The notes: generated from the letters alone by a model not told the origin. A stretch of DNA of 64,000 bases from a virus (IMGVR_UViG_3300045988_155182), one strand, 5' to 3'. Numbered from the stretch's first letter, positions 4,941 to 62,553 are shown. A program made the numbers and translations.

Positions 4941-5222
4941 ATGACTGATTTCACCATTACCCCTAAAGCACAAAATGTATTCCTTGAATCATGGCTGGAC
5001 TTGCCGGAAACAGAACAGCAAGAAATGGATCATGTGGATTATGACGAGCAGGTAAGCACGCGATTCTTCCACTTTGAGGGATGCGTTTACGACATTGCCG
5101 ACTTCATGCGAGATGACCGCTTCCCTGAATGGCACGCAAGCTATCCACTAAACGCCTTTGCCATGCTGATGATCCGTGTGGATGATTCAGGGGATACCAT
5201 CGACATCGGTCTGCTCCACTAA
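4941..5222 (+). CDS. Hypothetical small acidic early protein (94 aa)
   Basis: ORF track 4809..5222; ATG at 4941 has GAGGA about 8 nt upstream; the upstream part of the track ORF overlaps the promoter cassette. Confidence 0.5.
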   Translation: MTDFTITPKAQNVFLESWLDLPETEQQEMDHVDYDEQVSTRFFHFEGCVYDIADFMRDDRFPEWHASYPLNAFAMLMIRVDDSGDTIDIGLLH

Positions 5223-5227
5223 AGATT

Positions 5228-5251
5228 AAGGCCACCAATGCTGGTGGCCTT
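5228..5251 (+). terminator. Hairpin aaggccaccaatgctggtggcctt (copy 2)
   Basis: Seen directly. Confidence 0.4.
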
Positions 5252-5375
5252 AAATGACCATCCTGTTTCCCGCAGGCTAAAAACACCAACCTCTTACCTC
5301 CAGGCAACCGACAAACCCACCTGTTCCCGTCCGGCTACCTCAACTTTCCACTTTGACGCCTTATTCATACAACGA

Positions 5376-5409
5376 TAATTAACACCAACAAGAAAACAAT
5401 TTGTTATTT
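5376..5409 (+). promoter_or_regulatory. Conserved early promoter/operator cassette (copy 3)
   Basis: cgataattaacaccaacaagaaaacaatttgttattt. Confidence 0.5.
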
Positions 5410-5426
5410 ACGATAAGGAATTAATC

Positions 5427-5909
5427 ATGAATTTTATCGCTACTGTAAACGCACCCGCACATGGCAATATCGCTGTAACGTTCTCTGACATTGAAAAACG
5501 AGTACTTGGTGCATGGCGCGACAATGAGACGGTAGAACTGTCAGCACAAGAAAAATGCATTATTGCACGCGACATCATTGGCAATCGTCGTTACTCGCGG
5601 GTATTTGAGAAAGCGTATGTGGTAAATTCTGGGTTCGGAACGTTCGTCTTTCCGGTGCGCTCAGGGCGATTCTGCCAGTCCAAGCTGATTGAGTTCGCTA
5701 CGCAGATTTCTGTCTGGATTAAAACTCAATCGTCGTTCAAATTTTCCGACGATGAAGCAGTATCGCAGGGGATGCGGATCGCCAACAATGCGATTAAATG
5801 CAAAAACATTACGTATACCGCTGGCGTTGATACATGGAAACTGTTTTGCGCTAACTTTATGCTGAATGTATACGCAAGCAACCGCATCCACATCCTTGAT
5901 GGCGTGTAA
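5427..5909 (+). CDS. Hypothetical protein (160 aa)
   Basis: ORF track; AAGGA upstream of the ATG. Confidence 0.55.
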   Translation: MNFIATVNAPAHGNIAVTFSDIEKRVLGAWRDNETVELSAQEKCIIARDIIGNRRYSRVFEKAYVVNSGFGTFVFPVRSGRFCQSKLIEFATQISVWIKTQSSFKFSDDEAVSQGMRIANNAIKCKNITYTAGVDTWKLFCANFMLNVYASNRIHILDGV

Positions 5910-5915
5910 CTGAGA

Positions 5916-5939
5916 AGAGGGCCAGAAACGGCCCTTTCT
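5916..5939 (+). terminator. Hairpin gagggcc-agaaac-ggccctttct
   Basis: Seen directly after the 5427..5909 gene. Confidence 0.5.
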
Positions 5940-5958
5940 CTATAGCCACCAGCTGCCG

Positions 5959-6039
5959 CAGGGAAATTTTCAGAAACGGCGAGGAACGCATTCATGAGCC
6001 GACGGGGAACGGCCAGGATTTTTTCGGGAAACGGCTGCA
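5959..6039. repeat. Iteron-like cluster 2 (cagggaaatttt, cagaaacggcgagg, cggggaacggccagg, tcgggaaacggctgc)
   Basis: Same repeat family as cluster 1; last two units about 22 bp apart. Confidence 0.5.
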
Positions 6040-6164
6040 TTCGCCTTTATATAGAAAAAACATCGGGAAGCTGGTGGAATCCAACCAGCGGTTGTCGGAC
6101 AGGTGAGCGGGGAAAATTATGATGACTTTCGTCGCCTGAGACATCCAGATTTCTTTCGTAGCGT

Positions 6165-6208
6165 AATCACATATGTGATTAAGTGGTGTGATTATGTGAA
6201 AAATCACG
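6165..6208. promoter_or_regulatory. Operator-like palindromes (aatcacatatgtgatt; tgtgattatgtgaaaaatcacg)
   Basis: Perfect 14 bp palindrome plus related half-sites in a large intergenic region; seen directly. Confidence 0.4.
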
Positions 6209-6494
6209 CGCACATAATACGCGAGCGGATACGGAACAAAACAAAATGCCGATCCGCGCCGACAATTAAACGCGGATCACATAGCAAGAATAAAAGCCAA
6301 TGATTAACCATACACCATAGCGCAATATAACGCGTTTTAAGCGCGTTAATGTGTTGAGTAATGGGTATGTACTGGTAAGGATATAAAAGCGCGTCTGTGG
6401 CGTTATTTTGGCGCTTATTTTATGTTGTTGGAGTGAGTCAAAGACAATAAAAAAGCGCCATCATTGGCGCGTTATGGTGGAAGTATTAGAAACG

Positions 6495-6529
6495 AAAAAA
6501 GCGCCCATAGTGGGCGCTCGATTTTATTT
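6495..6529. terminator. Bidirectional terminator (gcgcccatagtgggcgc flanked by A-run and T-run)
   Basis: Same 17 bp hairpin repeated at 6772-6788. Confidence 0.55.
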
Positions 6530-6754
6530 ATGTAAACTGATTTCAAATCCCATTTCTACAAACGCTTTTAACATTAAAAATATATCAGCGTCATTCACGT
6601 CTGCTTTTTTTCGCTCCTGGTCGCTCAATAAGTCAATTTTGCGCGTCGTTTCATCGATAAACTCGACTGCGCGCCCAGCGTAACCAGCGATCCCAGCGAT
6701 GCGATTAACAAAATATTCATTGCGCACGTTAACGCCAGCGATAAGAATAAACAT
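6524..6754 (-). CDS. Small hypothetical protein (76 aa) bracketed by two copies of one terminator hairpin
   Basis: ORF track; AAGGAG 7 nt upstream of the ATG on the minus strand. Confidence 0.35.
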   Translation of the reverse strand: MFILIAGVNVRNEYFVNRIAGIAGYAGRAVEFIDETTRKIDLLSDQERKKADVNDADIFLMLKAFVEMGFEISLHK

Positions 6755-6765
6755 GATTAAGCTCC

Positions 6766-6790
6766 TTAAAAGCGCCCATAGTGGGCGCCA
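6766..6790 (-). terminator. Terminator for the 6802..7452 gene (gcgcccatagtgggcgc + T-run on minus strand)
   Basis: Seen directly. Confidence 0.5.
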
Positions 6791-6801
6791 GATTCCATTA
6801 A

Positions 6802-7452
6802 TTACGCTTTGAAAGCATCAGCCAGATAGTTATAGAAATCATTTTTAATAAAGCGATATTGCTGCGTACCAGCTTTTGCGCTTCCCATTCCTTTGACTTT
6901 CTCAACAAGTCCAAGACGTTCGCAAAGATTGATAAGCTGGTTGGCTTGAGTGTATCCTGCGTCTAATTTTATTTCGTTGGCTTTTTTCGCTTCATTCATT
7001 AAATCGAAAACAGCGCCATTTGTGAACGTCTCGATCTCGTCGTTAATCATATCGATTAATGCGAATACACGAGATCCGGACATATCAGCGACGGAATAAA
7101 CACACTTTCCAGCTTTAATGGATTTAACCAGATAAACCAGTTTTTCCAGAGAATAACTGTTAGTCATTGCATCACGGAAAAAAACTTCTGGCGCTTGTTT
7201 GCTTGCTTTGATCGCATAGTAGAAAACAGAGCATAATTTTTCGTCTTCTACAGCGTTTACAACGTTGTTGATGAAGTAAGCAAGTTTAGTGGTCGCAGCT
7301 TGCATATTTGCTTTGTCTGCTTTAGTGTGCGTACCATTTTTATAATGTTCGTTATATGTTTGAGTTGCCAGATCTGCTTTTTCGCGCAGTTCATCGGATA
7401 CAATGGAAGCAGCTTCAATGATGGATTTTTTAGAAATGATAATGTTAGCCAT
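6802..7452 (-). CDS. Hypothetical protein (216 aa), AT-rich, own transcription unit
   Basis: ORF track; AT-rich upstream region 7453-7735 and terminators on both sides. Confidence 0.55.
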   Translation of the reverse strand: MANIIISKKSIIEAASIVSDELREKADLATQTYNEHYKNGTHTKADKANMQAATTKLAYFINNVVNAVEDEKLCSVFYYAIKASKQAPEVFFRDAMTNSYSLEKLVYLVKSIKAGKCVYSVADMSGSRVFALIDMINDEIETFTNGAVFDLMNEAKKANEIKLDAGYTQANQLINLCERLGLVEKVKGMGSAKAGTQQYRFIKNDFYNYLADAFKA

Positions 7453-7735
7453 GATAATTTTTCCTTATGTAAATTTAAAATTTATTGTCGTTAGCGTCTT
7501 CGCTTTCGACGAGTTCAATTATCGATATGCGAAAAAAGATTGCAAGTGTTTTTTTAAATTTTTTTGCAGGGATGAAAGTCCTAGAAATAAAAGCGAGATC
7601 GTCGAAGGTGTTCCCTAAATAAATAATCGATTCCGGCTTTAGACCTTATATATATTTAGGTTATTTGATTTATAGATATAAAGAAGTGATGTGAAAAATA
7701 ATAACCGGACTTAGCCGGTTATTAACCTTATAGAT

Positions 7736-8044
7736 TTATTGAACAGACTCTACAGCCTTACGATTGGTGTCAAATAGCGCATCAACGAACTGTGCCGATG
7801 ACTCGCTAGATTCGCAATCCAACATTGCCCGTTCTTCATTTGCCACTTTCTTACACAGTTCCACACTCTCACCTATCGCTTTTCCTGCTTTTACGGCTGC
7901 CGAAAATTGATACATGCAAACTGATACATTCTGAGACGTTGAGCACACGTCATTCATCAGCGACTGAATGACAGGCTTATAGTCCATTGCATTTGCCGCA
8001 ACTGAGCAAAGTAAAAATAATGGTGGTAACAATATCGATTTCAT
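7736..8044 (-). CDS. Secreted/periplasmic small protein with N-terminal signal peptide (MKSILLPPLFLLCSVAANA)
   Basis: ORF track; hydrophobic N-terminus with ANA cleavage-like site; several Cys residues. Confidence 0.5.
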   Translation of the reverse strand: MKSILLPPLFLLCSVAANAMDYKPVIQSLMNDVCSTSQNVSVCMYQFSAAVKAGKAIGESVELCKKVANEERAMLDCESSESSAQFVDALFDTNRKAVESVQ

Positions 8045-8047
8045 AAC

Positions 8048-8572
8048 TCAAAAAGGCAAAATTCGTTCAACCCAATCGAACAAAACAACTATTTTTCTAC
8101 CGTTCTCGACACGTAGTGTAACCTGACAAGCATCTGCGCCTGCTGACACCCCCTCAATTTCACGGCCATCCGCCATGTACACCCTTATAGATTTGTTTGC
8201 TTTGTAGGCTTGGTTGCAAATTGCAAAAAAATCGCGGCGTGATGGCCGATTATCGACATAATCAGGGTGAACTGTTAGTCGACCTTTGAAATCGTGAGCG
8301 ATACTGTCAAACACACCTGATTCAATGGTACTAATGCGTTCAAGTGGGAGCCTTATACGATTTTCTTTGTCAAAAGGGGCTGGGCAAAGGTCAACTTTGT
8401 TACGAGATGGCATGAGGCCATAAACGTACATGCAAAACGCCTGACCATCTTCGAGAGTGACCCTTACAGGAATTTGTTCTCTGCGCCAGAACATCAGTAG
8501 TTTTTCAACGTTAGTGTAATCTCGCGGCCAGAGTTCAGCTTGGATACCGTAGGTAATATCTTTGGTTGTCAT
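8048..8572 (-). CDS. Hypothetical protein
   Basis: ORF track 8048..8608; internal Met gives start/stop coupling with the upstream lipoprotein gene. Confidence 0.45.
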   Translation of the reverse strand: MTTKDITYGIQAELWPRDYTNVEKLLMFWRREQIPVRVTLEDGQAFCMYVYGLMPSRNKVDLCPAPFDKENRIRLPLERISTIESGVFDSIAHDFKGRLTVHPDYVDNRPSRRDFFAICNQAYKANKSIRVYMADGREIEGVSAGADACQVTLRVENGRKIVVLFDWVERILPF

Positions 8573-8576
8573 GTCA

Positions 8577-9041
8577 TCACAGAGTTGTTGGCAGAATGTC
8601 GATGTCACCAGAATTGCTGGTGAACACCCTGAATGCTTTTGTGTCTCTATTCTTCAGAGTCGTTTCTCGCTCTTGACGAGCGGGGTTTAGAGCACATAAA
8701 CCTGCACCTTCAAGAGATGCACCCACAATTAATTCTCCGGCATTTAAATGGAAAGTCGCTTTTTCGCCTGTAGCCAGTTTTGCGACAGTTTCGCCGTTGA
8801 TGAAAATGGAAGCATCACATCCAGCTCCTACAAAACCTGTGTCTCTCATTACCACCAACGTAGCTGGCGCTGCGCTTTGATACTTGAACACTTTGGCCTG
8901 CGGTGCTGGTTTGGCGTCATGGATTGATATTGGGCGTGATTGGCACGCGGTAAGCATCAACACTGGTAACGTTAGTAGAGGGAGAAGCGAGTATTTCATG
9001 ATAGTTTTAGAACAGAAAGTGAACAGTATGGGAGACTTCAT
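8577..9041 (-). CDS. Putative lipoprotein (lipobox LTAC); candidate superinfection-exclusion protein
   Basis: ORF track; hydrophobic segment followed by L-T-A-C; start ambiguous (9041 has GGGAGA RBS; Met at 8999 gives a shorter, more typical signal peptide). Confidence 0.5.
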   Translation of the reverse strand: MKSPILFTFCSKTIMKYSLLPLLTLPVLMLTACQSRPISIHDAKPAPQAKVFKYQSAAPATLVVMRDTGFVGAGCDASIFINGETVAKLATGEKATFHLNAGELIVGASLEGAGLCALNPARQERETTLKNRDTKAFRVFTSNSGDIDILPTTL

Positions 9042-9067
9042 CTTTGTCTCCCTAATTGATAGCGTGA

Positions 9068-9346
9068 TTATTTTAATCTGCTTAATAGCGTTTCGAGATC
9101 TTCCTTTGTCATATTAGAGTTCTCATAGATACGCATGATTTTCTCACGAGTCTTAGCGGAAGCCCCGACAGAAGATATAACCTTGTCAAAGTCGGCCATT
9201 GTCAATTGTTCCAGAATGGTATTTATGACTTCAGCCTTAGACATTTTGATATTTTTTTCTTTTAGTTTCACTTGAAACTTTCCAAGTTTGTCATTGGCCT
9301 TATCAGACAATGCTACCTGACAGTAAGTTGTTTTCTTTTCACTCAT
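9068..9346 (-). CDS. Hypothetical small protein (92 aa)
   Basis: ORF track; coupled to the upstream helicase gene. Confidence 0.45.
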   Translation of the reverse strand: MSEKKTTYCQVALSDKANDKLGKFQVKLKEKNIKMSKAEVINTILEQLTMADFDKVISSVGASAKTREKIMRIYENSNMTKEDLETLLSRLK

Positions 9347-9348
9347 AA

Positions 9349-10908
9349 CTAATCTCGTTTCAGAACTCCAAAATCGAATGCTCCATCAATAGGCAATACA
9401 CCTTCTGCAAAGCCAGGTGTGGTGTCGATGATGTGTTTTCGCTCATAAGAGTGAGACAACAGGTATTTGTTGCTAATGTCAATGAAATCAGTGATAAAAC
9501 ACACGTTTGCCTGATTTTTTTTGGCTCGTAAGCCACGACCGACACGCTGTCTCATTTCAACTTCTGCTTTCCCACCACCAGCAAGAATGACCGCACCAAC
9601 GCTTGGCACATCAACACCAACATCCAGAATAGTCGAGCCTATTAAAACATCTATTTCACCAGACGCTAAACTATTCAGCTTTGCTTGCCTTGTCGTCTGG
9701 TTAGATTCCCCATAGATGAAATCAACTTTAAGACCTGACTCCTTCATCATCTCCATCAGGATTTGCCCGTGGCGTTTAAGACGAACCAGAGTCATGCAGT
9801 TGAGTGAATGTTGCTTATAAAGCAATGCCTCGCGCACTATGGCCTCGTTACGTCCCAAATTATACACGATCCCCAACTGATAAGCCTTTTGGTAGGCGGT
9901 GCTCATACCAACTCTAAAATTAAGGTGTTTGTTGGCAAGTTCCGCCTTGATTCTGACCTCGTCTGGCTTGTAAGCAACTTTATGATAAAGGAAGTACGGT
10001 TTTGCCAGAATGCCTCGATCAATCAGGTACTTTTCTGTGACTTTAATTTCAATTCGACCGGCCACAGCCATCAGACGCATGTTGGCTTCTGTAGAATCCT
10101 TCATGAACGGCGTGGCCGTAAGCGCCAGACGATAGTCTGCGTTCACACATAATCTGGCAATGTCATAGAAATTAGAGCCTGAAGACTCATGCGCTTCTTC
10201 CAGAATAAGCAGAGACACACTTGAAAGGAAGCGTTTCACTAGCTCCCGACGTTTGAGGTGGTAGCTCTTTTTATCTGGTGTTGCATCGCGTGGTGGTTCT
10301 TCAAGGAAACTTGCCAGAGTTTGAACTGTAGCGACGTTGATATGTCGTGATACCTGGAACTCACCCGAGCCAATGACTCCAACCTTTTGGTCTTTTAACC
10401 ACGGTTCGCCATTTTCGGCGCGGTAGTCGATGGATCTCTGGAAGTTTTCGGCCATTTGAAACATCAGAACAGAGCGGGTTGTTAAAAATAATGTCATTCG
10501 ACCGATACGTGCAGCTGCTTTGCAGGCAACGTTAGATTTCCCGCCACCAGTAGCGATCTGCGCAATCATCATTCCCTCTCGAACCAGTGTTTCCACAGTC
10601 TGATCCTGATACGCATAATCAGGATTGTATGGGAATGGGTTAACCGCCGGATTTGGTTTACCAAGCGCCGGGGCTTTGTCTTTGCGGATATGAACACATT
10701 TGATGCCCGCCTTGTTCAAGTTCGCCGCTACAGGCTTGGCAAAGCCAGCAGGGAACGAGTTTTTACTCCAGTTGAACATCGTGCTTGTGCCCTTCCAGTC
10801 GCCAGTCTCGACTTCGTAGCTCAACATTTGCTGCACCAGTTGCTTTACCTTGTCATCTGCGCCAGAAATAAGCGCATTTACTGCGTTAGATACAATCCGA
10901 ACAGTCAT
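9349..10908 (-). CDS. Superfamily 2 DEAD/DEAH-type helicase (519 aa)
   Basis: Motif I ATGGGKS, motif II LILEEAHE, motif III LTATP, motif VI QRVGRGLR in the translation. Confidence 0.75.
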   Translation of the reverse strand: MTVRIVSNAVNALISGADDKVKQLVQQMLSYEVETGDWKGTSTMFNWSKNSFPAGFAKPVAANLNKAGIKCVHIRKDKAPALGKPNPAVNPFPYNPDYAYQDQTVETLVREGMMIAQIATGGGKSNVACKAAARIGRMTLFLTTRSVLMFQMAENFQRSIDYRAENGEPWLKDQKVGVIGSGEFQVSRHINVATVQTLASFLEEPPRDATPDKKSYHLKRRELVKRFLSSVSLLILEEAHESSGSNFYDIARLCVNADYRLALTATPFMKDSTEANMRLMAVAGRIEIKVTEKYLIDRGILAKPYFLYHKVAYKPDEVRIKAELANKHLNFRVGMSTAYQKAYQLGIVYNLGRNEAIVREALLYKQHSLNCMTLVRLKRHGQILMEMMKESGLKVDFIYGESNQTTRQAKLNSLASGEIDVLIGSTILDVGVDVPSVGAVILAGGGKAEVEMRQRVGRGLRAKKNQANVCFITDFIDISNKYLLSHSYERKHIIDTTPGFAEGVLPIDGAFDFGVLKRD

Positions 10909-10952
10909 AAACCTCTTTCCTTAGTGCCTTTTGTATGTTATTTGGCTATTAT

Positions 10953-10972
10953 AATAAGTAAGTGATTACTTA
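10953..10972. repeat. TAAGTA palindrome variant (ataagtaagtgattacttag) in divergent promoter region
   Basis: Seen directly. Confidence 0.45.
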
Positions 10973-11671
10973 GTGGATTGTAGCAATAAAATGGATGTAA
11001 AAATCACGATTTTGCAGGTTGATGTTGCCAACCTTCGCCCGAATACCTGGAACACCAATTCGGTTGGTGCGCAGAATTTTGAAAAACTGAAAGGTTCTAT
11101 CGAAAAATTGGGCTTTTTTAAGCCAATTTTGGCTCGTGAACTTGAAGATGGATTTTTTGAAATCCTCGGCGGCGAACATCGCTGGCGTGCTGCTATTGAG
11201 CAAGGAATTTCAACGGTTCCGGTGCTTTCTGTGGGCAAAATTAGCGATGTCGTAGCTAAACAGATGTCACTGGTGGACAACGAGCGATACGGTGAAGACG
11301 ATCAAATCGCATTGCAACGCTTCATTGAAGAAATTCAGTCAGAACTTGACTATCAACTGTCTGAAATCGCCCCGTATGACGACGAAATCTCGATGGTTTT
11401 AGCAAAAGAGGCGGCAATCGACCTTGAAGCACTGGAGGCATTGTCTCGTGGTAGTGATGAGCCTGTCGATACCGACAAACGAGAGAAAACCGAACGTGTG
11501 GGTGCGGAACATCAGACCATGCGCTTCAAAGTAACCTTCGATGCGTCAGATCGTGTTGCAGAAACCATAAAAAACATCATCAAAGAGCAGGCTATTAACA
11601 CCGGTAATGAAATGGAGAACGCTGGTGAGGCTCTGGTGTGGCTGGTCGACTACTACAAGGAGCGTATGTAA
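10973..11671 (+). CDS. ParB/Srx N-terminal-domain protein 1
   Basis: GGEHRWRAA matches the ParB GxxRxxA box. Confidence 0.7.
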   Translation: MDCSNKMDVKITILQVDVANLRPNTWNTNSVGAQNFEKLKGSIEKLGFFKPILARELEDGFFEILGGEHRWRAAIEQGISTVPVLSVGKISDVVAKQMSLVDNERYGEDDQIALQRFIEEIQSELDYQLSEIAPYDDEISMVLAKEAAIDLEALEALSRGSDEPVDTDKREKTERVGAEHQTMRFKVTFDASDRVAETIKNIIKEQAINTGNEMENAGEALVWLVDYYKERM

Positions 11672-12339
11672 TGACCAAAAAGTTTGAAATCGTATATCGC
11701 GACCCGGCAGATCTTATTCCCTATGAGATGAATGCCAAAAAGCATGATGAACAGCAGATCCGAGATCTGGCCGCAGCCATTAAAAAGCGCGGATTTGACC
11801 AGCCAATTACGGTCGATAAGAACGACGTAATTATTACTGGCCACGGCCGCCGTGAGGCTGCAATTTTTGCTGGACTTGAGCGCGTACCGGTTATTGTTCG
11901 CGATGATCTCAGTGATGACGAGGTTCGTGCGAAGCGCCTTGAAGATAACCGACTTGCCAGCATTGATTACGATGCAATTAAGCTACAGAAAGAGCTTGAG
12001 TCGCTTGTTCTGGACGATATCGAGGTTTTCGGCTTTGAAGAGCGGGAGTTGAATGTTCTCGTTGGCAGCATGACAGAAGAAATGGACACCGACTCGCTAG
12101 TTATCGATCTGGGCGAAGAAACTAAACGACAGAAGGATGAACACACCGAGATCAGTCGTGAAGTTGCAGCGGAAGAAGTACGTGTTGTCGACGTATTGGG
12201 CTTTAAAACGCTCCCTGCTGGCTCTGCCATTGTTGTTGGTGATTTGCTTGCCCATATGGAAGAAATGACGGGAGAAAGCGGGGTAGACGCATTTGTGGCA
12301 TATGCGGAGAAGATCTCTTCCGGGGAGATGGCTGCATGA
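11671..12339 (+). CDS. ParB/Srx N-terminal-domain protein 2
   Basis: TGHGRREAA box; ATG overlaps the upstream stop (TAATG); ORF track 11638..12339. Confidence 0.7.
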   Translation: MTKKFEIVYRDPADLIPYEMNAKKHDEQQIRDLAAAIKKRGFDQPITVDKNDVIITGHGRREAAIFAGLERVPVIVRDDLSDDEVRAKRLEDNRLASIDYDAIKLQKELESLVLDDIEVFGFEERELNVLVGSMTEEMDTDSLVIDLGEETKRQKDEHTEISREVAAEEVRVVDVLGFKTLPAGSAIVVGDLLAHMEEMTGESGVDAFVAYAEKISSGEMAA

Positions 12340-13001
12340 ACAAATACATCATCAACATATCGTTTCAGACACGCGTAAATAAAACCACGCGCACGTTGGA
12401 AATCGCTGAGTCGTTCGGGCTTGGCCTGGACGAAAAAGAGTGGACGCTTTACGACAATCTGGAGCTGGAAGTGAAGCAGGGCGATGTGGTGTACATCACC
12501 GGCCAATCCGGTTCCGGCAAATCCGTTGTGCTGCGCGAGTTGCAACGACAGATGAAGGATGAAGGGCTGTCTGTAGCCTCCATCGATGATTTTACCTTCG
12601 ATAATGAGGTTAACGTCATCGATCAGTTGGGCAAAACGACCAGTGATGCGCTTGGGTTGTTATCTATGGCTGGTCTGAACGATGCATATCTGTTTGTTCG
12701 CAAGCCTTCTGAAATGTCAGACGGCCAGAAATATCGTCTCAAGATTGCCAAACTGATTGAGTCAGGCGCTAAAGTGTGGGCTGCTGACGAGTTCGGCGCT
12801 GTTCTCGACCGTGTAACCGCTCAGGTTGTGGCGTCTAACCTCCAGCGTGCCGCGCGAAAGGTTGGTGCGACGGTAATGGTGGCGACGACTCACGAAGACC
12901 TGAAGAACGCGCTGCGCCCGGATATGCAGATCACCAAGCACTACAAAGAACGCGTGAAGGTGGAATATCACAATGGTAGTCATGATGAGGTCCCTTCATG
13001 A
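12336..13001 (+). CDS. P-loop ATPase, ABC-like (Walker A GQSGSGKS, signature-like SDGQKYR, Walker B VWAADEF)
   Basis: Motifs in the translation; ATGA overlap with the upstream gene. Confidence 0.6.
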   Translation: MNKYIINISFQTRVNKTTRTLEIAESFGLGLDEKEWTLYDNLELEVKQGDVVYITGQSGSGKSVVLRELQRQMKDEGLSVASIDDFTFDNEVNVIDQLGKTTSDALGLLSMAGLNDAYLFVRKPSEMSDGQKYRLKIAKLIESGAKVWAADEFGAVLDRVTAQVVASNLQRAARKVGATVMVATTHEDLKNALRPDMQITKHYKERVKVEYHNGSHDEVPS

Positions 13002-13888
13002 CGGACATCATCATTAAACGCTACCGCCCTGAAGAGTTTCCGCGTCATCTGGACTTTCTGGAGCGAATGACTGTTACAAAGGGAACTGTAGAGGACTGGC
13101 ACGCTCTTAAGTCGCTTCACTACAAAACAGACGGCAAACCTTTCGCGCCAACTTACTATCGCTGCGAACTTGATGACCGTCTGGTGGGCGTCGTGGTTAT
13201 GGCTTACCCGAAACTACTGTTGGCACCTCGCCACCGCATGTTTCCTAAGTTGAAACCAACCACTAATACCACCGTGGCTAACCAGTACTGGGGTCGGTAC
13301 GTGAATAACAACTTTGCGGTGATCAGTCGCTCAGTTGTGGATACTCAGTATCGTGGCGTAGGCGTCTCTTATCGAATGATTAACCTGGTTAGCAGGATGC
13401 ATGACCGGCCAATCATTGAGATCCAGTCCTCGATGAGCAAATACAATCCCTTCGCCATGAAAGCAGGGTTTAAGTTCATCCGCCCTGAGCGACCGAAGAG
13501 CTATGAAAGTGCACTGCGTGTATTCCAGCGCCATTTTCGTTCCGACCCGGGTGATAACGAGGCGATCGTTAAAGAGTTGTTCGCTATGAGCGAGTCTCGT
13601 CGTCGCCGTGCACTGCGTGATCTGGTGGCGGACTACCACAAGAACAGTTCCCTGGCAAAAGCTGGGCGGAATCGTGGCACGACGATTCAGGACATTGCCG
13701 ACAGTCTGGTGGACGAGGCCAGCATTGTGAAGCTGCTCAAGGACATTCACAACCTGAGCTTTACGTCTCCGTTGTATGGTGTGTATCGAAACCCTGACTT
13801 TGGTCGTCGACTGCCTGACACGCTGCCACTGCTGGCATTCGACAAACAACCTTTGGATAAACCGTTAGAAATTGCTTTACCGGCATAA
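12998..13888 (+). CDS. Hypothetical protein with possible GNAT-like acetyltransferase core (YRGVGVS)
   Basis: Weak motif resemblance only. Confidence 0.4.
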   Translation: MTDIIIKRYRPEEFPRHLDFLERMTVTKGTVEDWHALKSLHYKTDGKPFAPTYYRCELDDRLVGVVVMAYPKLLLAPRHRMFPKLKPTTNTTVANQYWGRYVNNNFAVISRSVVDTQYRGVGVSYRMINLVSRMHDRPIIEIQSSMSKYNPFAMKAGFKFIRPERPKSYESALRVFQRHFRSDPGDNEAIVKELFAMSESRRRRALRDLVADYHKNSSLAKAGRNRGTTIQDIADSLVDEASIVKLLKDIHNLSFTSPLYGVYRNPDFGRRLPDTLPLLAFDKQPLDKPLEIALPA

Positions 13889-49383: not shown

Positions 49384-50724
49384 ATGACCGAACTTTGCCA
49401 TACAGGACGCGGGCTGTCCGAAGAGTTTGATGAAGATTTTCAGAACAGATTGACGGCCTATTTTTGTCGTGATCACGAGTTTCTTACTCGTGCTGGAGAT
49501 CTGGTTGTACCTAGCCAATTTGCCAATGCGGCCAATGCCATATTGGTTAATATGGTTTCGGGCTATTACCGTATGTACAAGAGCGCGCCCTCTTCATCTG
49601 CGATTCTGGATATGCTTAAGCGTGCGAAACGCGATAAGACTATCCGTGAGGAACTATTCGCCGATGTTGTTGCTGCGTTTAAGCGCATCCTTGCAGAAAA
49701 ATTGTCTGATACCTCGTACATGGTTGACCAGGTATCAACCTTCGCAAAAAGCGTAGCGTTTGATGATGCTCTGATTAAGGCTGCTGAACTGAAAGAGAAG
49801 GGCGACTTTCAGGGGGCGATGGCAATCATGGCCAAGGTTCAGCAGATTGGATCGAACGAAGCGACCGGAATCTATGACTACTACACCTCCGCAAGTGAGC
49901 GATTGAAAGCGCGTGAATATGAGGCTTCAGAGGAGTATGTGCCAAACAGCATTACAACTGGACTCCCTCTGCTCGATAGGTTGCTGTACCAAAAAGGCTG
50001 GGCGAAGCGTGAAATGGTGCTCTTCATGGGGTTCGCTAAATCCGGTAAATCGACCGCAATGGGTGAGTTTTCCATAAACGCAACGCTTGCTGGCTACAAT
50101 GTTCTGTATCTCTCGCTGGAGGTTCACACCAACATTTTGTCCGACCGCTTTGATGCAAGATTGTCGGAGACGGAAATGTCCAAGCTGGTGGAACGGCGCG
50201 ATGAAGTTCATCGTAAGTTGGCAGAGTTGGGAGCCACTAAGGGGATTGGTAGTTTGTGGGTTGTTGAGCGTCCGTCAGGAAGTATGTCACCTGCAGATCT
50301 GGACCGTATGCTTAACAGTATGAAAGCCAATGGCATGGTGCCTGACATGGTTGTTGTCGACTACGCAGATTTGATGCGTGCCAGTTATGACCTTCGTGAT
50401 GATCGCGCCAATATTCGTAGTATCTACACCGATTTACGTGCTCTTTATGACAAGCATAACGTTGCTGGGATCACGGCATCGCAGACAAACCGTGAAGGTG
50501 GCGCGTCAGAAGTTGCCACAATGATGCACGCCGCCGATAACATCGAAAAAGTACGTATTGCTGACCTGGTAATAACGATCAACAAAACCGAAGAAGAAGA
50601 AGCGAAAGGAGAGGCTCGTCTCTACTTTGCTGGTTCACGTAACCAGCAGGGTGGGATCAGCATTCGCGTTAAACAAAACCTCGAACAAATGCGTTTCATT
50701 GAGCGAATCTTAGACGTTACCTAA
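49384..50724 (+). CDS. DnaB-like replicative helicase
   Basis: Walker A GFAKSGKST, Walker B VVVDYADLM; RecA-like C-terminal domain. Confidence 0.7.
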   Translation: MTELCHTGRGLSEEFDEDFQNRLTAYFCRDHEFLTRAGDLVVPSQFANAANAILVNMVSGYYRMYKSAPSSSAILDMLKRAKRDKTIREELFADVVAAFKRILAEKLSDTSYMVDQVSTFAKSVAFDDALIKAAELKEKGDFQGAMAIMAKVQQIGSNEATGIYDYYTSASERLKAREYEASEEYVPNSITTGLPLLDRLLYQKGWAKREMVLFMGFAKSGKSTAMGEFSINATLAGYNVLYLSLEVHTNILSDRFDARLSETEMSKLVERRDEVHRKLAELGATKGIGSLWVVERPSGSMSPADLDRMLNSMKANGMVPDMVVVDYADLMRASYDLRDDRANIRSIYTDLRALYDKHNVAGITASQTNREGGASEVATMMHAADNIEKVRIADLVITINKTEEEEAKGEARLYFAGSRNQQGGISIRVKQNLEQMRFIERILDVT

Positions 50725-52895: not shown

Positions 52896-53377
52896 TGGCG
52901 GTAGTTGTGAAAGCTGATTTGTCAAAAATCCCTTCTATTTCAGGAAATAACGGTTATTCACTTCGTTGTGAGGAAGTAAAGATAAACGGTGAGTCGGCAT
53001 ATTGCAGCTACTCCGTATGCCAGCACACCATTCTTGCCTTCAAAGAAAACCGTCTTCCTCGAACGTCTTTCCAGTCGTGCGCAACCGCTATTAAAGCAGG
53101 CAAATGCAAGGCGTTAAAAATGATGGTTGAAGAGATTCGTAAAGGAGAATCTCTGTATTTCGAAGATATGACCGCACTCATTAAGGAGGTTGAAGAACGG
53201 AATAAACAAGCCAGAACTATAAAACGAAAACGTGACAGTGTAACGATTAATAGCATGGTTAAGAAGAGCGCCACATCACAAACAGCGATCACTGACGTGT
53301 ATGCGGCGTTGATTGAAGAAACAACAAAAGAAACACATGAGCAAATCGATCAACATATGGAGGCAAAACAACAATGA
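52895..53377 (+). CDS. Hypothetical Cys-containing protein (160 aa)
   Basis: ORF track. Confidence 0.5.
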   Translation: MAVVVKADLSKIPSISGNNGYSLRCEEVKINGESAYCSYSVCQHTILAFKENRLPRTSFQSCATAIKAGKCKALKMMVEEIRKGESLYFEDMTALIKEVEERNKQARTIKRKRDSVTINSMVKKSATSQTAITDVYAALIEETTKETHEQIDQHMEAKQQ

Positions 53378-54696
53378 AAAAGTTGATCGCACTTAAGCAT
53401 AAGCTGGACGAAATGAAAGCTATGGGAACCAATGCAAAAAAAGAGGCATTGGCCAACATGGATGACTTCGAGCAAAGCATGGTTTCATTGATGCTCAACC
53501 CTTTCATCCGTTTTGGGGTAAAGAAATACAAAGTGGCAGAGCCGCTTAGTGAGTCCGTCCCAAGTGACGAAAAAGCCATTGATATACTGAATAAGCTGGC
53601 CTCTCGCGAGCTGACGGGGAACGCAGCAATAGCTGCTGTTGAGTCTATCGTGGCGTCAATGTGCGCCGATGGGCAGGACGTGTTCCGTCGTTTCCTCTTA
53701 AAAGATCCGAAAGCTGGCGTTGGGATTAGCCTATGCAACAAGGTTTTTGAAAATCCCATTCCGAAATTTGAGGTGCAGCTGGCGTCACCGTATAAAGAAA
53801 AAGGCGACAAATACCCCTTCAAGCCAAATCCTAAAGCCAAATGGCCGATGATTGGCAGCCTTAAGCTCGATGGTTTGCGAGTAATTTGTGAGGTTATTGT
53901 TGACGAGGAAGAGGTGAACTTCCTTTCTCGTACTGGTAATCCAATCACGTCTCTCGATCACCTAAAGCCAGCCATGCTCGAATTAGGCAAACTTTCAGGC
54001 CACAAACACATCTTCTTCGATGGTGAAGGAACAGCCGGTTCATTTAACCAGTCCGTATCTGCATTGCGCAAAAAGAACGTGCAGGCAATTGGCGCTATTT
54101 ATCATGTTTTCGACTTCTTCCTACCGGAATGGCGGGCACAGGCTAAATCCAAAGAGTATGCAAAGACAGGTATAAAGCTGAAAGAGCGCCTGGCTATGCT
54201 CGTGGCGTTGTTCAAAAACGATCGCAGTGAAGGCTACGCACAAGACATTCACCTGCATCCGTTCTACATCATCCATAGCCACGAAGACTTCATCGAACGC
54301 TTCATGAAACGCCTGGACGATAACGAAGAAGGGGAGATGGGCAAAGATCCGAACTCTGTTTACGAGTTTAAACGTACCCGCAGCTGGTGGAAGTTAAAAG
54401 ACGAAGATTCAGAAGATGGTGAAATTATCGATTTTGAGCCTGGCGACCCGGACTCTGGTTTTGCCAACACGCTTGGAAAAATTGTTATTCGTCTTGAAAA
54501 CGGCGTCATCGTTCGTGCGAGTGGCATTAAGCATAAATATCTGGACGAGATCTGGAACAACAAAGAGAAGTACCGTGGTCGTATTGTCGAGGTTCATTGT
54601 CACGAGAAAACACCTGATGGCAGCTTACGCCACCCACGACTGAAATGGCCGCGTTGCTTACGCGATACCGAAGATCGAATCGGAGATAAAGAATGA
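53374..54696 (+). CDS. ATP-dependent DNA ligase (putative)
   Basis: Nucleotidyltransferase motif I KLDGLR, motif III-like FFDGEG, motif V-like WWKLK. Confidence 0.6.
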   Translation: MKKLIALKHKLDEMKAMGTNAKKEALANMDDFEQSMVSLMLNPFIRFGVKKYKVAEPLSESVPSDEKAIDILNKLASRELTGNAAIAAVESIVASMCADGQDVFRRFLLKDPKAGVGISLCNKVFENPIPKFEVQLASPYKEKGDKYPFKPNPKAKWPMIGSLKLDGLRVICEVIVDEEEVNFLSRTGNPITSLDHLKPAMLELGKLSGHKHIFFDGEGTAGSFNQSVSALRKKNVQAIGAIYHVFDFFLPEWRAQAKSKEYAKTGIKLKERLAMLVALFKNDRSEGYAQDIHLHPFYIIHSHEDFIERFMKRLDDNEEGEMGKDPNSVYEFKRTRSWWKLKDEDSEDGEIIDFEPGDPDSGFANTLGKIVIRLENGVIVRASGIKHKYLDEIWNNKEKYRGRIVEVHCHEKTPDGSLRHPRLKWPRCLRDTEDRIGDKE

Positions 54697-58302: not shown

Positions 58303-59406
58303 ATGAAAAATAGCTTTGACAGAGCACGCGCTGCGGAGAACACCTCAAAAGAGGCGATAGAGTATCTCGAAAGAGCATCTCAAATGCAGGCCGTTATGAT
58401 CTCCCAGGTCAGCAATGACATGAGATTCTCGGACGCATTCATGTTATTCACTCGCTTATCTCTGCTGATAACCAGACGTCGGCCAGAGATCGCTGTTCAT
58501 TGTATTTTGATACATGTTTTGCCGCACATTGCCGATGTAAAAGTAAGTGACATTAATAGGTTCATGGTGAACCAACTGGTCAACCCACTAATACTGGATG
58601 GCAAAATTGTTATGGGCCGCCGCGTTTTCTCTCTGATGAAGCAGTTCCTTAGCTGGTGCGCCTTCCAGGGGATGATAGACGTGTCACCGTTGAACGATAT
58701 GTCACTTAACAAAGTTGCCGGTGGCGCAAAGCCCACACCTCGCGAGCGGAAGCTGACCGACGCAGAGGTATGGGTGTTCTGGAATATATGGGACTACTTC
58801 AATGTGTGTGCTGGTACAAAATGGGCGGCCAGGCTATGTCTTGTATCCGCAAGACGACCTGACGAAGTACTGCGGGCTAAAAAAAGTGAGTTCAATCTTA
58901 AGCGTGGGGTTTGGAATCAAGGCAAGAGGAACAAATCTGCCCGTGAGCATTCTCTGCCTTTAAGCTCATTAATGCGCACTTGTATTGAAGAGTTGTTCGA
59001 ATATGGTAAAGACAGCCAGTGGCTCGTGCCTTCGAATAAAAAAATCGGGAAAGACCTTCCTATGTCTAAAGTGGCAATAGCCCAGGCATTACGTCGTATT
59101 CTGGAACGACCAGAACTGATGGAGCTTGAGCCATTTACACCCCGAGATTTGCGCCGTACTGCGCGTAGTTACTTCCCAGCATTAGGCATAAGCCAGGAGG
59201 TATCACGTAAAATCATGAACCACAGTCTTGAGGGGATAGATCGGGTCTACGACCGGCACGATTATATGGACGAGATGCGAGACGCCTTAGAAAGTTTCTC
59301 GACGTACATCGCATCAATCGTAGAGCAACCGGATTTAGACGAAATTGACCACAAATTTAAGGGAGATCGTCTATCAACAGAGCTTATTCGTGTAAATTTT
59401 TCATAG
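58303..59406 (+). CDS. int: Tyrosine-type integrase/recombinase
   Basis: C-terminal catalytic pattern (RDLRRTARSYF ... HSLEGIDRVYDRHDY) consistent with the R..H..R..Y tyrosine recombinase signature. Confidence 0.8.
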   Translation: MKNSFDRARAAENTSKEAIEYLERASQMQAVMISQVSNDMRFSDAFMLFTRLSLLITRRRPEIAVHCILIHVLPHIADVKVSDINRFMVNQLVNPLILDGKIVMGRRVFSLMKQFLSWCAFQGMIDVSPLNDMSLNKVAGGAKPTPRERKLTDAEVWVFWNIWDYFNVCAGTKWAARLCLVSARRPDEVLRAKKSEFNLKRGVWNQGKRNKSAREHSLPLSSLMRTCIEELFEYGKDSQWLVPSNKKIGKDLPMSKVAIAQALRRILERPELMELEPFTPRDLRRTARSYFPALGISQEVSRKIMNHSLEGIDRVYDRHDYMDEMRDALESFSTYIASIVEQPDLDEIDHKFKGDRLSTELIRVNFS

Positions 59407-60349: not shown

Positions 60350-62458
60350 ATGTCTAAAAAACGTTCCATCAAAGAGGTTCAGGACTTCCGTGACAGTGTA
60401 AAACGAGTAGTCGCTCTCCTTTCAGGTAAAAACATCCCTGTTGCAGAACGAGGGGACGACGCTTATGTACGCTATAACGATGATGGAGAGCCAATTCTCG
60501 TAAACATCCCATCAATCCCGGATAACGCAACACCGGCATTGATGAATGCTGTGCGCGGATTTCTCGATCATGAGGTTGCTCACATTTTGTTTACCGATAT
60601 TCGTGTGTCCAACAAAATGAGAGAAAAAGGACGCGTTCCTTCCTGGTCGCTATGGAATGCCTTAGAAGACGTGTTCATCGAGCGAAAAATGGGTCAGGTC
60701 TTTAACGGAACAAGACGTAATCTGATGGCAACTCAGCGCCTTATAATCGAAAAAGTCTTTAAACCAAAGGCTTCAGAGGCTATTGCTTATTGTGGCAAAG
60801 ATCAGCGCGCGCTTTTTCTAAACTTCTTTCTCTGTCCGGTTGTAAGAGCCTGGGATGGCCAAGCACCGTTCGTAGACTTCATGGATGAATATTGGCCTGT
60901 CATTGAGAAACCAATTTCATTATTAAAAGAACATGGTATCGATGTGGCCGTGCGTAACATGTCTTGCACCGAGGATTGTGTAAAGGTGGCTGCGACCATA
61001 GCTAAGATCCTCAAAGACACTGAAAGTGAAAGCAAAGGTAAGGAGTCAGCTCCGGGAAAAACTTCCGATCCTTCAGACGCTGACCAGACGGATGCCTCTG
61101 GAGAAAACAATGAAGACAACGAAGATCATGAGACACCCTCATCGTTAGATAATCACAAATCTATTAAATCAGAGTCACATAGTAAGTACAAACATGATAA
61201 TAACGACAGTGATGACTCAGATAATCCTGAATCATCAGAAACAATATTCGATGATACAGAAAATGATAAAGCGGTATCAGATTCTGATGCTTCTGATAAC
61301 GCGGCGTCAGAATCATTAACCGCTGACCACGAAAAAAGAAAAACGACAGAAGACGGCTCTTCAGACATTCCAACTCCGTCAAAAATGAGTCTGGAAGAGG
61401 CTTTAGAGGAGTTGGATAGCATGGAAGATGAAGTCGGAGGCATGACAGAAGATGCGCTATCCGAAACGATTAAAAGCGAGTTAACAGAAAGCTCGAAAAG
61501 CGAATACAGGCCATACAATCGCTCATACGACTTCATCGGCTCGATTGATCAGGCAGAAGCCCATATCAAACGGCTTATTAAAACATTCTCCGATATTGAT
61601 TTAGGTGGATATCCAATCAGCCGTTATCGCATCGTTCCTGAAGGCAACCAACTCTTCGACAAATATATTGAAAAGCACCTTTCGTCAGGTGTTTCGTCGA
61701 CGCTGGCAAAAGACCTGGAACGTGCAATAGCAAGCAGAAACAGAGTTCAGTTTATACCTGGCCAGCGTCGGGGGCGCATTCATGGTTCAAGTATCTACAG
61801 ATTAACAATGAATGATGATCGCGTGTTTCGTAAAAAAGAAGAATCTAAAGCCGTTAACGCCTGTGTTCAACAAGTGATTGATTTATCGGGTTCAATGAGT
61901 GGCGAAACGATAAAACTAGCTCTTGCAAGTGCATATACCATCGCCGATGCACTTGATCGAATAAATGTTCCCAACATTATCACCGGCTTCACTACATTTG
62001 GCAGTCATATGGCAGCAGGAGAACTTAAGGCTATCAAATATGAGTTCTCTCGCTTTGAATCTTTAATGCTACCTATCATCAAAAATTGGAATGAAAAAGC
62101 AAATTCTCGCGAAGTTCGCTCACGTATGGGGTGCGTAGGCTACACATTCCCACTTCTTAATAACGTGGATGGTGAAAGCATAGCCAGCCTTGCATCGTTA
62201 TTTTCCGGTCGCTTGGAGGACAGGAAGATCATGCTTGTTCTGAGCGATGGCGCGCCGTGGGCTGTTGGGAGAGGTTTTGACGCCCATTTGCGGTCGGTTA
62301 CGAAGCAAATTGAAACGCAGACTGACATTGATTTGATGGCAATTGGCATCATGACTGATGCACCGGAGAGATTTTACGCAAATCATGCCCTGGTAACTAG
62401 TGTTGATAGTCTTGGTTCATCTGTAGTTACTGAACTATCTCGTATCATTTTGAAATAA
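60350..62458 (+). CDS. CobT-like protein: N-terminal domain, long acidic Asp/Glu/Ser-rich linker, C-terminal vWA domain
   Basis: MIDAS-like DLSGSMSG in the C-terminal third; very acidic low-complexity middle; paired with downstream AAA+ ATPase. Confidence 0.6.
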   Translation: MSKKRSIKEVQDFRDSVKRVVALLSGKNIPVAERGDDAYVRYNDDGEPILVNIPSIPDNATPALMNAVRGFLDHEVAHILFTDIRVSNKMREKGRVPSWSLWNALEDVFIERKMGQVFNGTRRNLMATQRLIIEKVFKPKASEAIAYCGKDQRALFLNFFLCPVVRAWDGQAPFVDFMDEYWPVIEKPISLLKEHGIDVAVRNMSCTEDCVKVAATIAKILKDTESESKGKESAPGKTSDPSDADQTDASGENNEDNEDHETPSSLDNHKSIKSESHSKYKHDNNDSDDSDNPESSETIFDDTENDKAVSDSDASDNAASESLTADHEKRKTTEDGSSDIPTPSKMSLEEALEELDSMEDEVGGMTEDALSETIKSELTESSKSEYRPYNRSYDFIGSIDQAEAHIKRLIKTFSDIDLGGYPISRYRIVPEGNQLFDKYIEKHLSSGVSSTLAKDLERAIASRNRVQFIPGQRRGRIHGSSIYRLTMNDDRVFRKKEESKAVNACVQQVIDLSGSMSGETIKLALASAYTIADALDRINVPNIITGFTTFGSHMAAGELKAIKYEFSRFESLMLPIIKNWNEKANSREVRSRMGCVGYTFPLLNNVDGESIASLASLFSGRLEDRKIMLVLSDGAPWAVGRGFDAHLRSVTKQIETQTDIDLMAIGIMTDAPERFYANHALVTSVDSLGSSVVTELSRIILK

Positions 62459-62473
62459 TTAAAACAGCCTTAA

Positions 62474-62493
62474 TGATAAGTAACTACTTATCA
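62474..62493. repeat. TGATAAGTA-AC-TACTTATCA perfect palindrome
   Basis: Seen directly. Confidence 0.55.
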
Positions 62494-62553
62494 TAGTTAA
62501 TGGTATATTTATATAAGAACTTGAACGCTCATTAGAGAACAAAGGAAAAGCGC

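Follow-up and report, generated by a model that had tools for sequence, protein, structure and literature searches.

We consider it likely that the five leftward genes at 7736-10908 of IMGVR_UViG_3300045988_155182, a viral stretch of 64,000 nucleotides analysed here in full (the window), form an ordinary mosaic backbone operon of a phage-plasmid that is expressed in lysogeny. In this reading, a superfamily 2 (SF2) helicase, a 92-aa protein and a protein of the FljA family belong to the backbone, and two independent envelope cargo genes, for a lipoprotein and for a 102-aa secreted protein, have been slotted in between. Escherichia phage CMS-2020a matches the whole of region 7600-11000 at 99.1% identity, and Salmonella phage SSU5 matches ~74% of it at 79% identity. 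From these identities the window is assigned to an SSU5-like E. coli phage-plasmid, and the rightward tail and head genes found elsewhere in it fit such an element. Other members of this group are pHCM2 of S. Typhi, pMT1 of Y. pestis and pLF82/Cyrano of E. coli LF82. An initial annotation of the same DNA had proposed that a DEAH-type helicase coupled to a lipoprotein and a secreted protein might be a composite exclusion or defence module; its five open reading frames (ORFs) are confirmed, and its reading of them as a composite module is not supported.

The division into backbone and cargo comes from a comparison with related regions in SSU5, Cyrano, pMT1, two Klebsiella plasmids, an E. coli plasmid and a Salmonella Newport plasmid. 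Each window protein was scored against these regions, giving a matrix of presence and absence. The gene order is fixed: helicase, 92-aa gene, a first variable slot (slot A), FljA-like gene, a second variable slot (slot B), and a 216-aa gene, after which a 76-aa gene usually comes. The lipoprotein gene occupies slot A in the window, SSU5, pMT1 and the Newport plasmid; in Cyrano and the Klebsiella and E. coli relatives L004, L005 and L006, this slot carries one to three unrelated genes, some on the opposite strand. In slot B, the window, L004 and L007 have the 102-aa gene, and the other regions have nothing. Each of the four possible combinations of presence and absence of the two genes is represented. 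The helicase, 92-aa, FljA-like and 216-aa genes thus make up the fixed backbone, and the lipoprotein and 102-aa genes are optional cargo. Since backbone genes here have optional genes slotted between them, the pairing of helicase and lipoprotein is positional.

The same division is seen in far larger samples. A tblastn search of PLSDB returned the helicase in 1003 records (of which ~824 reach at least 60% identity and most others come from Acinetobacter), the FljA-like gene in 834, the lipoprotein in 421 (~340 of them SSU5-type, at 60% identity or more) and the 102-aa gene in 259. Among ~1000 related plasmids the lipoprotein is present in ~40% and the 102-aa gene in ~30%; beyond plasmids, the latter was found in only 2 phage records, and all of its carriers are of SSU5 type. 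Helicase and FljA-like genes run nearly one to one within each genus (Klebsiella 346/344, Escherichia 229/229, Enterobacter 92/92, Yersinia 62/62). Of 5426 complete E. coli genomes, 215 (~4%) carry part of the unit and 84 carry at least 80% of the four-gene arrangement, plasmid-borne in every case.

Divergence along the unit is uneven. The helicase keeps 90-99% amino acid identity across enterobacterial hosts, with saturated synonymous sites and a ratio of nonsynonymous to synonymous substitution rates (dN/dS) of 0.01-0.05, and the 92-aa and FljA-like proteins range from ~50% to 86% identity between relatives. The Klebsiella plasmids L004 and L006 differ by a dN of 0.003 in the helicase and 0.006 in the 216-aa gene; in the FljA-like gene, dN is 0.21 and dS is saturated. 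The replacement of the FljA allele on a near-identical backbone marks the interval from the 92-aa to the 216-aa gene as a recombination hot spot, and in these two plasmids the FljA allele and the cargo slot appear, from their sequences, to have been swapped as a block by recombination.

Several features indicate that the five genes are transcribed together. Intergenic gaps read from the sequence are 2 nt between the helicase and 92-aa genes, 26 or 68 nt (depending on the start codon) between the 92-aa and lipoprotein genes, 4 nt between the lipoprotein and FljA-like genes and 3 nt between the FljA-like and 102-aa genes. An intrinsic terminator starts 11 nt past the last stop codon and consists of a 10-bp stem followed by the U-run UUAUUUUU; the hairpin folds at -12.6 kcal/mol (z -4.1 relative to shuffled sequences). 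At the other end, a perfect -10 hexamer, TATAAT, lies on the minus strand at 10948-10953, in the intergenic region 5' of the helicase gene, and the helicase ATG is preceded by a strong Shine-Dalgarno sequence, AAGGAAAGAGG. All five genes have full-length PHROG matches and their homologues are under purifying selection (dN/dS 0.01-0.24), and they are therefore real genes and not chance ORFs.

Expression was assessed in LF82(Cyrano) lysogens using published normalised counts (Misson et al. 2023, PMC9928086, S1 Table). The homologue of the 92-aa gene, CYRAN_117, reaches 114 counts, 12-fold above background, and the helicase and FljA-like homologues reach 46 and 18. The divergent ParB-like gene stands at 5, which is the floor, and the homologues of the 216-aa and 76-aa genes stand at 5-6 (PMC9928086). 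Genes upstream of the terminator are thus expressed in these lysogens and those past it are at or near the floor. From these data the helicase unit is taken to be on in the plasmid (lysogenic) state, and 7699-10972 is likely to be one leftward, lysogeny-active transcription unit. Coordinates are collected in Table 1.

Table 1. Features of the helicase operon and of other parts of the window mentioned in the text.
Feature	Position	Strand	Description
SF2 helicase	9349-10908	-	519 aa; Pfam, phrog_16
92-aa backbone protein	9068-9346	-	phrog_1466, full length
Accessory lipoprotein	8577-9041	-	phrog_890 'lipoprotein', E 4e-51
FljA-family protein (Flag1_repress)	8048-8572	-	PF03614; phrog_1444, E 4e-100
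102-aa secreted (periplasmic) protein	7736-8044	-	phrog_9536; signal peptide
Divergent intergenic region, 65-nt	10909..10972	-	upstream of helicase
Intrinsic terminator	7699-7724	-	closes five-gene unit
DnaB-like helicase	49384-50724		separate, distant replication/recombination module
Further parts of the replication/recombination module	53374-54696, 58303-59406, 60350-63789		apart from helicase operon
Divergent operon	10973-13888	+	two ParB_N-domain proteins, ABC-type ATPase, 296-aa protein
76-aa ORF	6524-6754		bracketed by the 35-nt repeat copies
35-nt direct repeat, two copies	6497-6531, 6768-6802		both terminator-like

What each of the five proteins does biochemically we infer from its relatives and features. 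Two start codons are possible for the lipoprotein: an ATG with GGGAG in front of it gives 154 aa, and the ATG at 8999 gives 140 aa. Its signal peptide, MKYSLLPLLTLPVLM-LTAC, has a K-containing n-region, a hydrophobic core and, in the 140-aa form, a lipobox cysteine at position 19. The lipobox LTAC of the initial annotation holds: it matches the pattern [LVI][ASTVI][GAS]C, and its cysteine is invariant in 47/47 and 53/53 aligned family members. By the Lol rule of E. coli, lipoproteins with a residue other than Asp at position +2 go to the outer membrane. The +2 residue here is Gln (CQSRP) and not Asp, so sorting to the outer membrane is predicted. Two further cysteines, C61 and C102, are conserved in the family beside that of the lipobox. 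An AlphaFold model built on a 53-sequence alignment (pLDDT 91.7) predicts the mature part of ~121 aa to be a beta-sandwich with one conserved cysteine pair; an earlier model from a 12-sequence alignment (pLDDT 56) was unusable.

Relatives of the lipoprotein number 873 at E <= 1e-3 in a library of representatives clustered at 50% identity, and the best of those listed are mostly single-domain proteins of ~140 aa. Sub-threshold matches to DUF2846 occur in 13 of 47 family members, and the DUF2846 literature is uninformative about the family. No relative with a solved structure was found, and fold searches with the lipoprotein returned generic beta-sandwiches. To our knowledge, no member of this family of ~140-aa beta-sandwich lipoproteins has been studied.

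The genomic positions of these relatives are more informative. Known exclusion genes such as cor and llp lie beside receptor-binding tail genes or in the immunity region. In mEp390 (HK97-like) and in Pseudomonas aeruginosa phages, homologues of the window lipoprotein separate tail genes K and I, adjacent to J, the gene for the central fibre; Pseudomonas prophages and a linear, N15-like Klebsiella plasmid of 54 kb use the same K-I slot beside J. In Vibrio phage P2, a homologue lies directly downstream of the cI repressor gene. No helicase or FljA-like gene accompanies the lipoprotein in these lambdoid, N15-like, Pseudomonas and Vibrio phage contexts. At the window locus the gene sits between the helicase/92-aa genes and the fljA-like gene, and not beside tail genes. 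Judged from these contexts, the family appears to behave as a mobile moron found at exclusion or lytic-conversion positions. Because homologues occupy such classical positions, a role in superinfection exclusion is plausible, and we regard the lipoprotein as a candidate exclusion gene. It is probably a lysogenic or lytic-conversion moron whose product, from the inner face of the outer membrane, would bind an envelope component needed by incoming phages. In the Pseudomonas prophages L013-L016 (~5839-7420), the lipoprotein homologue in the K-I slot is accompanied by a Kdo/WaaP-family gene resembling lipopolysaccharide (LPS) kinases, an arrangement that suggests a two-gene envelope-modifying moron.

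The 102-aa product is a signal-peptide protein, as had been annotated, and its signal peptide ends in the cleavage motif A-N-A. Its four cysteines, C34, C43, C64 and C77, are invariant even in a relative of 22% identity.

The FljA-like ORF encodes 174 aa from its ATG and 186 aa from an upstream GTG. It had been listed as an unnamed 175-aa protein; the ORF stands, but it is a full-length member of the FljA family. The match to PF03614 ('repressor of phase-1 flagellin') spans positions 1-170 of 170 with an E value of 3.7e-84 and 281.2 bits, relative to a cut-off of 24. A chromosomal FljA of Salmonella Kentucky shares 50% identity with it over the C-terminal 62 aa (E 7e-15); this FljA is partial and lies on a fragment (L023) mislabelled 'phage'. 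A full-length Salmonella FljA query gives 34% identity over 175 aligned positions (E 2e-37), and the C-terminal half of this query equals the L023 fragment save one residue. The motifs shared with FljA, TYG..AE.WPRDY at the N terminus and RRDFF / DWV.RI at the C terminus, are invariant. The C-terminal domain also gives an Hfq/Sm-like signal, which stays below threshold and is in keeping with RNA binding.

In every characterised case, FljA represses fliC post-transcriptionally and its gene is linked to a second flagellin gene (PMC1876496, PMC2652032). Such linkage is seen in fljBA, in pBSSB1 and in flk-type loci of E. coli. A tblastn search of the 64-kb window with a FliC N-domain query found no flagellin gene, and none is annotated in the related regions L001-L008. 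A search of the window for a target resembling the fliC leader gave chance-level matches only. The 834 PLSDB plasmids that carry the FljA-like gene include 344 from Klebsiella and 62 from Yersinia pestis, which make no flagella, and the gene is intact and under purifying selection (dN/dS 0.08-0.24). Because no flagellin gene is found and the gene is retained in non-flagellate hosts, fliC is probably not its target, or not its sole target. By sequence, then, the protein is a member of the family that is without the family's usual flagellin linkage. Literature searches found no study linking SSU5, pHCM2, pMT1 or phage-plasmids with fljA or a flagellin repressor.

Some database records of the FljA-like gene carry labels that should be read with care. 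Record P0074, labelled 'chromosomal', was considered as a flagellin-linked fljA and was found to be a decaying SSU5-like segment. In L009 (E. coli CP125919.1), an SSU5-like segment lies inside a chromosome-sized contig of 5.2 Mb; its helicase and 216-aa genes are in pieces, its FljA-like and 92-aa genes are intact, which gives it the look of an integrated copy in decay or of a join made in assembly. SSU5-type FljA-like genes of 55-71% identity also occur in L021 and L022, which are metagenome-assembled genomes labelled Bacillota / Candidatus Fimivivens, and in P0079 (Gemella morbillorum). These records with Gram-positive labels are most likely binning or contamination artefacts and not true hosts.

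The helicase matches Pfam ResIII, DEAD and Helicase_C and the DNA helicase family phrog_16 (E 2e-93). Its motifs are ATGGGKS (I), EEAH at 237 (II), TAT at 264 (III) and QRVGRGLR at 454 (VI); with motif II reading EEAH, it is DExH-like, and the DEAH-type label was incorrect. A phmmer search of the Protein Data Bank (PDB) returned archaeal XPBII (2e-12), Rad25 (1e-8) and T4 UvsW (2e-8) as closest relatives. Matches to the NCBIfam models for XPB and for the dnd-restriction helicase score well short of the equivalog cut-offs, and the protein is accordingly a relative rather than an orthologue. That it is not the replicative helicase is supported: its nearest solved relatives are XPB and T4 UvsW, and a DnaB-like helicase, distinct from it, is encoded separately. 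Against PADLOC (Pbe, Dpd, Druantia, DISARM, BREX, Type I/IV restriction-modification), only helicase-core segments were matched, the best being PbeA (E 5e-23, profile positions 253-635 of 672), and no neighbouring protein matched a partner of any defence system in PADLOC.

In all of L001-L007 and L009, the 92-aa gene directly follows the helicase gene, and the 2-nt gap suggests that the two are translationally coupled. Acinetobacter phage-plasmids carry a helicase of 42% identity and a 97-aa ORF, divergent from a ParB_N/ParB_N/ABC-ATPase operon; their annotation shows no FljA-like regulator or lipoprotein in the flank displayed. The pair of helicase and small ORF thus appears, on comparative grounds, to be the ancient core of the locus. 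BLASTP of the 92-aa protein against the Acinetobacter 97-aa protein gave E 0.22. By eye, both proteins (the latter at L024:6824-7117) show a strand-helix-helix pattern resembling ribbon-helix-helix (RHH) proteins. Pfam searches with nine 92-aa homologues gave marginal matches in one of the nine (RHH_4 E 0.025, RHH_1 E 0.13), and the protein is possibly a small helical or RHH-like DNA-binding partner of the helicase. In T4, uvsW.1 follows uvsW much as the 92-aa ORF directly follows the window helicase. The 92-aa protein was considered as a UvsW.1 analogue, but no similarity to UvsW.1 could be shown, and its PDB matches were uninformative, those at E<0.001 being designed helical repeat proteins only. 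To maintain or recombine the ~108-kb replicon, the helicase, possibly with the 92-aa protein, would remodel R-loops or branched DNA, in a UvsW/RecG-like role in the processing of forks, R-loops or recombination intermediates.

Some observations weigh against a mosaic operon with independent cargo. The intergenic region upstream of the helicase contains no recognisable -35 element, and a consensus promoter scan called no full promoter there. Cyrano, the source of the expression data, carries neither this lipoprotein nor the 102-aa gene. The 4-nt and 3-nt gaps joining the lipoprotein, FljA-like and 102-aa genes imply translational coupling, which would also fit a functional trio. Furthermore, in the distant phage-plasmid L008 (203-1059; K. 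pneumoniae pKSB1_9A_3), where the FljA-like protein is only 35% identical, the FljA-like gene is directly followed by a gene for a secreted protein of ~100 aa with the four invariant cysteines, and this recurrence suggests that the pairing may be ancestral, predating the SSU5 clade, and not accidental. In such a trio, the lipoprotein, FljA-like and four-Cys proteins would form a lysogenic-conversion cassette in which the FljA-like protein shuts off host flagellin, a receptor for flagellotropic phages and an immune target, and the exported pair alters or occludes envelope receptors, the helicase being merely upstream. Besides the coupling and the L008 pairing, the cassette is in line with the invariance of the FljA motifs, with how common the four-gene arrangement is in complete E. 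coli genomes, and with post-transcriptional repression of fliC as the sole experimentally known activity of the FljA family (PMC2652032). It is harder to reconcile with the lipoprotein and 102-aa genes coming and going independently of each other and of the FljA-like gene, or with a selected, intact FljA-like gene in hosts without flagella. The window also has no flagellin gene, unlike every characterised fljA locus, and the fliC leader matches it at chance level only. We judge the cassette unlikely.

Still less can be said for a composite exclusion or defence system with the helicase as its motor or sensor and the two exported proteins as its effectors. The genes do share one operon expressed in lysogeny, the helicase is not replicative, and in PADLOC it weakly resembles helicase subunits of the Pbe, Dpd and Type IV restriction systems; these matches, however, cover the generic helicase core only, and the partner genes are absent. 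The cargo varies independently: hundreds of elements keep the helicase at 90% identity or more with one or both of the lipoprotein and 102-aa genes missing, and at least four phage groups, unrelated to one another, have the lipoprotein family without any helicase. There is also no obvious way for a DNA helicase in the cytoplasm to meet a lipoprotein that faces the periplasm, and we consider such a system very improbable. Alternatively, the cargo might have nothing to do with exclusion and instead make the host fitter or more virulent (through serum resistance or adhesion, like lambda Bor and Lom) or help the element in its own lysis or release. The LPS-kinase-like (Kdo) moron adjoining the Pseudomonas prophage homologue would fit this idea, as would the strong upregulation of Cyrano genes from the equivalent variable region in cell-culture and macrophage conditions (PMC9928086). 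The lipoprotein family nonetheless recurs beside genes for the receptor-binding tail tip and directly after cI, like cor and llp, and we give a role in fitness or release very little credence.

In the mosaic operon that we favour, the two cargo genes would be gained and lost independently in two slots, the lipoprotein before the fljA-like gene and the four-Cys protein after it. The FljA-like protein would bind an mRNA leader and block its translation. Its target could be host fliC where present; the retention of the gene in hosts that lack flagella makes one of the element's own mRNAs the likelier target. A more far-reaching version, which we offer as a tentative possibility and do not expect to be correct, makes the FljA-like protein a core post-transcriptional regulator of SSU5-type phage-plasmids: an RNA-binding translational repressor acting on their own mRNA, with the exchangeable alleles being 'specificity types'. 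Salmonella/E. coli FljA would then be a domesticated offshoot, and the lipoprotein and four-Cys protein would be exclusion cargo on the transcript of the regulator. Candidate targets in that case are the downstream unit that is silent in lysogeny or a lysis-lysogeny or copy-number function. This orphan core gene is the most interesting loose end of the locus.

The locus brings together known kinds of gene: a moron lipoprotein, an FljA-family gene and a UvsW/XPB-like helicase. Like Salmonella FljA (fljBA) and FljA(z66) of pBSSB1, the window protein covers PF03614 over its full length (174 vs 179 aa) and has the invariant motifs. It differs in being linked to neither a flagellin gene nor an invertase, in being a phage-plasmid backbone gene that is also found in hosts without flagella, and in having divergent, swapped alleles. 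The helicase resembles T4 UvsW and archaeal/eukaryotic XPB/Rad25 in size (~500 aa) and in having two RecA-like domains after an N-terminal region of ~95 aa (E 2e-12 to 2e-8), but the similarity lies in the core only (residues ~225-485), and motif II reads EEAH. The gene is expressed in the lysogenic/plasmid state, as seen for the Cyrano homologue, and not as a lytic-cycle gene.

The lipoprotein is comparable to Cor (phi80, N15, T1, mEp167) and Llp (T5) as a small phage lipoprotein with a disulfide and a non-Asp +2 residue whose homologues lie at comparable positions. It is about twice their size and, at this locus, not beside tail genes. No sequence or fold similarity to Cor or Llp was detected, and T5 Llp (8a60) matches the signal peptide only (E 0.63). 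SSU5 itself reportedly uses the LPS core and not a protein receptor. The two cargo genes also resemble morons such as lambda bor and lom and HK97 gp15: they are optional envelope genes between backbone genes, patchy among relatives, in a unit transcribed in the lysogen (as seen for the Cyrano backbone homologues). They differ from morons in having no evident promoter-terminator pair of their own and in being translationally coupled inside a backbone operon.

Elsewhere in the window, a replication/recombination module lies apart from the helicase operon and encodes the DnaB-like helicase, an ATP-dependent DNA ligase, a tyrosine recombinase and CobT-like and AAA_5 (CobS-like) proteins. The operon divergent from the helicase gene has an arrangement (ParB_N/ParB_N/ABC) that is kept in the Acinetobacter phage-plasmids. 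The Cyrano homologue of its 296-aa protein is annotated as an ATPase fused to an acetyltransferase, and in Cyrano lysogens counts for the first ParB-like gene do not rise above the floor and those for the second are low. Beyond the 216-aa gene, two copies of a 35-nt direct repeat (86% identical), each holding the GC hairpin AAAAGCGCCCATAGTGGGCGC, bracket the 76-aa ORF, which may be a cassette flanked by duplicated terminators. Rfam and repeat scans of 5000-12000 returned nothing relevant to the five-gene operon.

The operon does not represent a new defence architecture; it shows how cargo threads into a backbone operon of very common phage-plasmids, among them SSU5, pHCM2, pMT1 and pLF82. Its lipoprotein family, whose members turn up at exclusion-type positions in temperate phages of the lambdoid, N15-like, Pseudomonas and Vibrio groups, is a candidate new superinfection-exclusion protein. 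The strict conservation of an orphan FljA-like gene in more than 800 phage-plasmids calls the annotation 'flagellin repressor' into question and hints at regulation at the RNA level in these elements.

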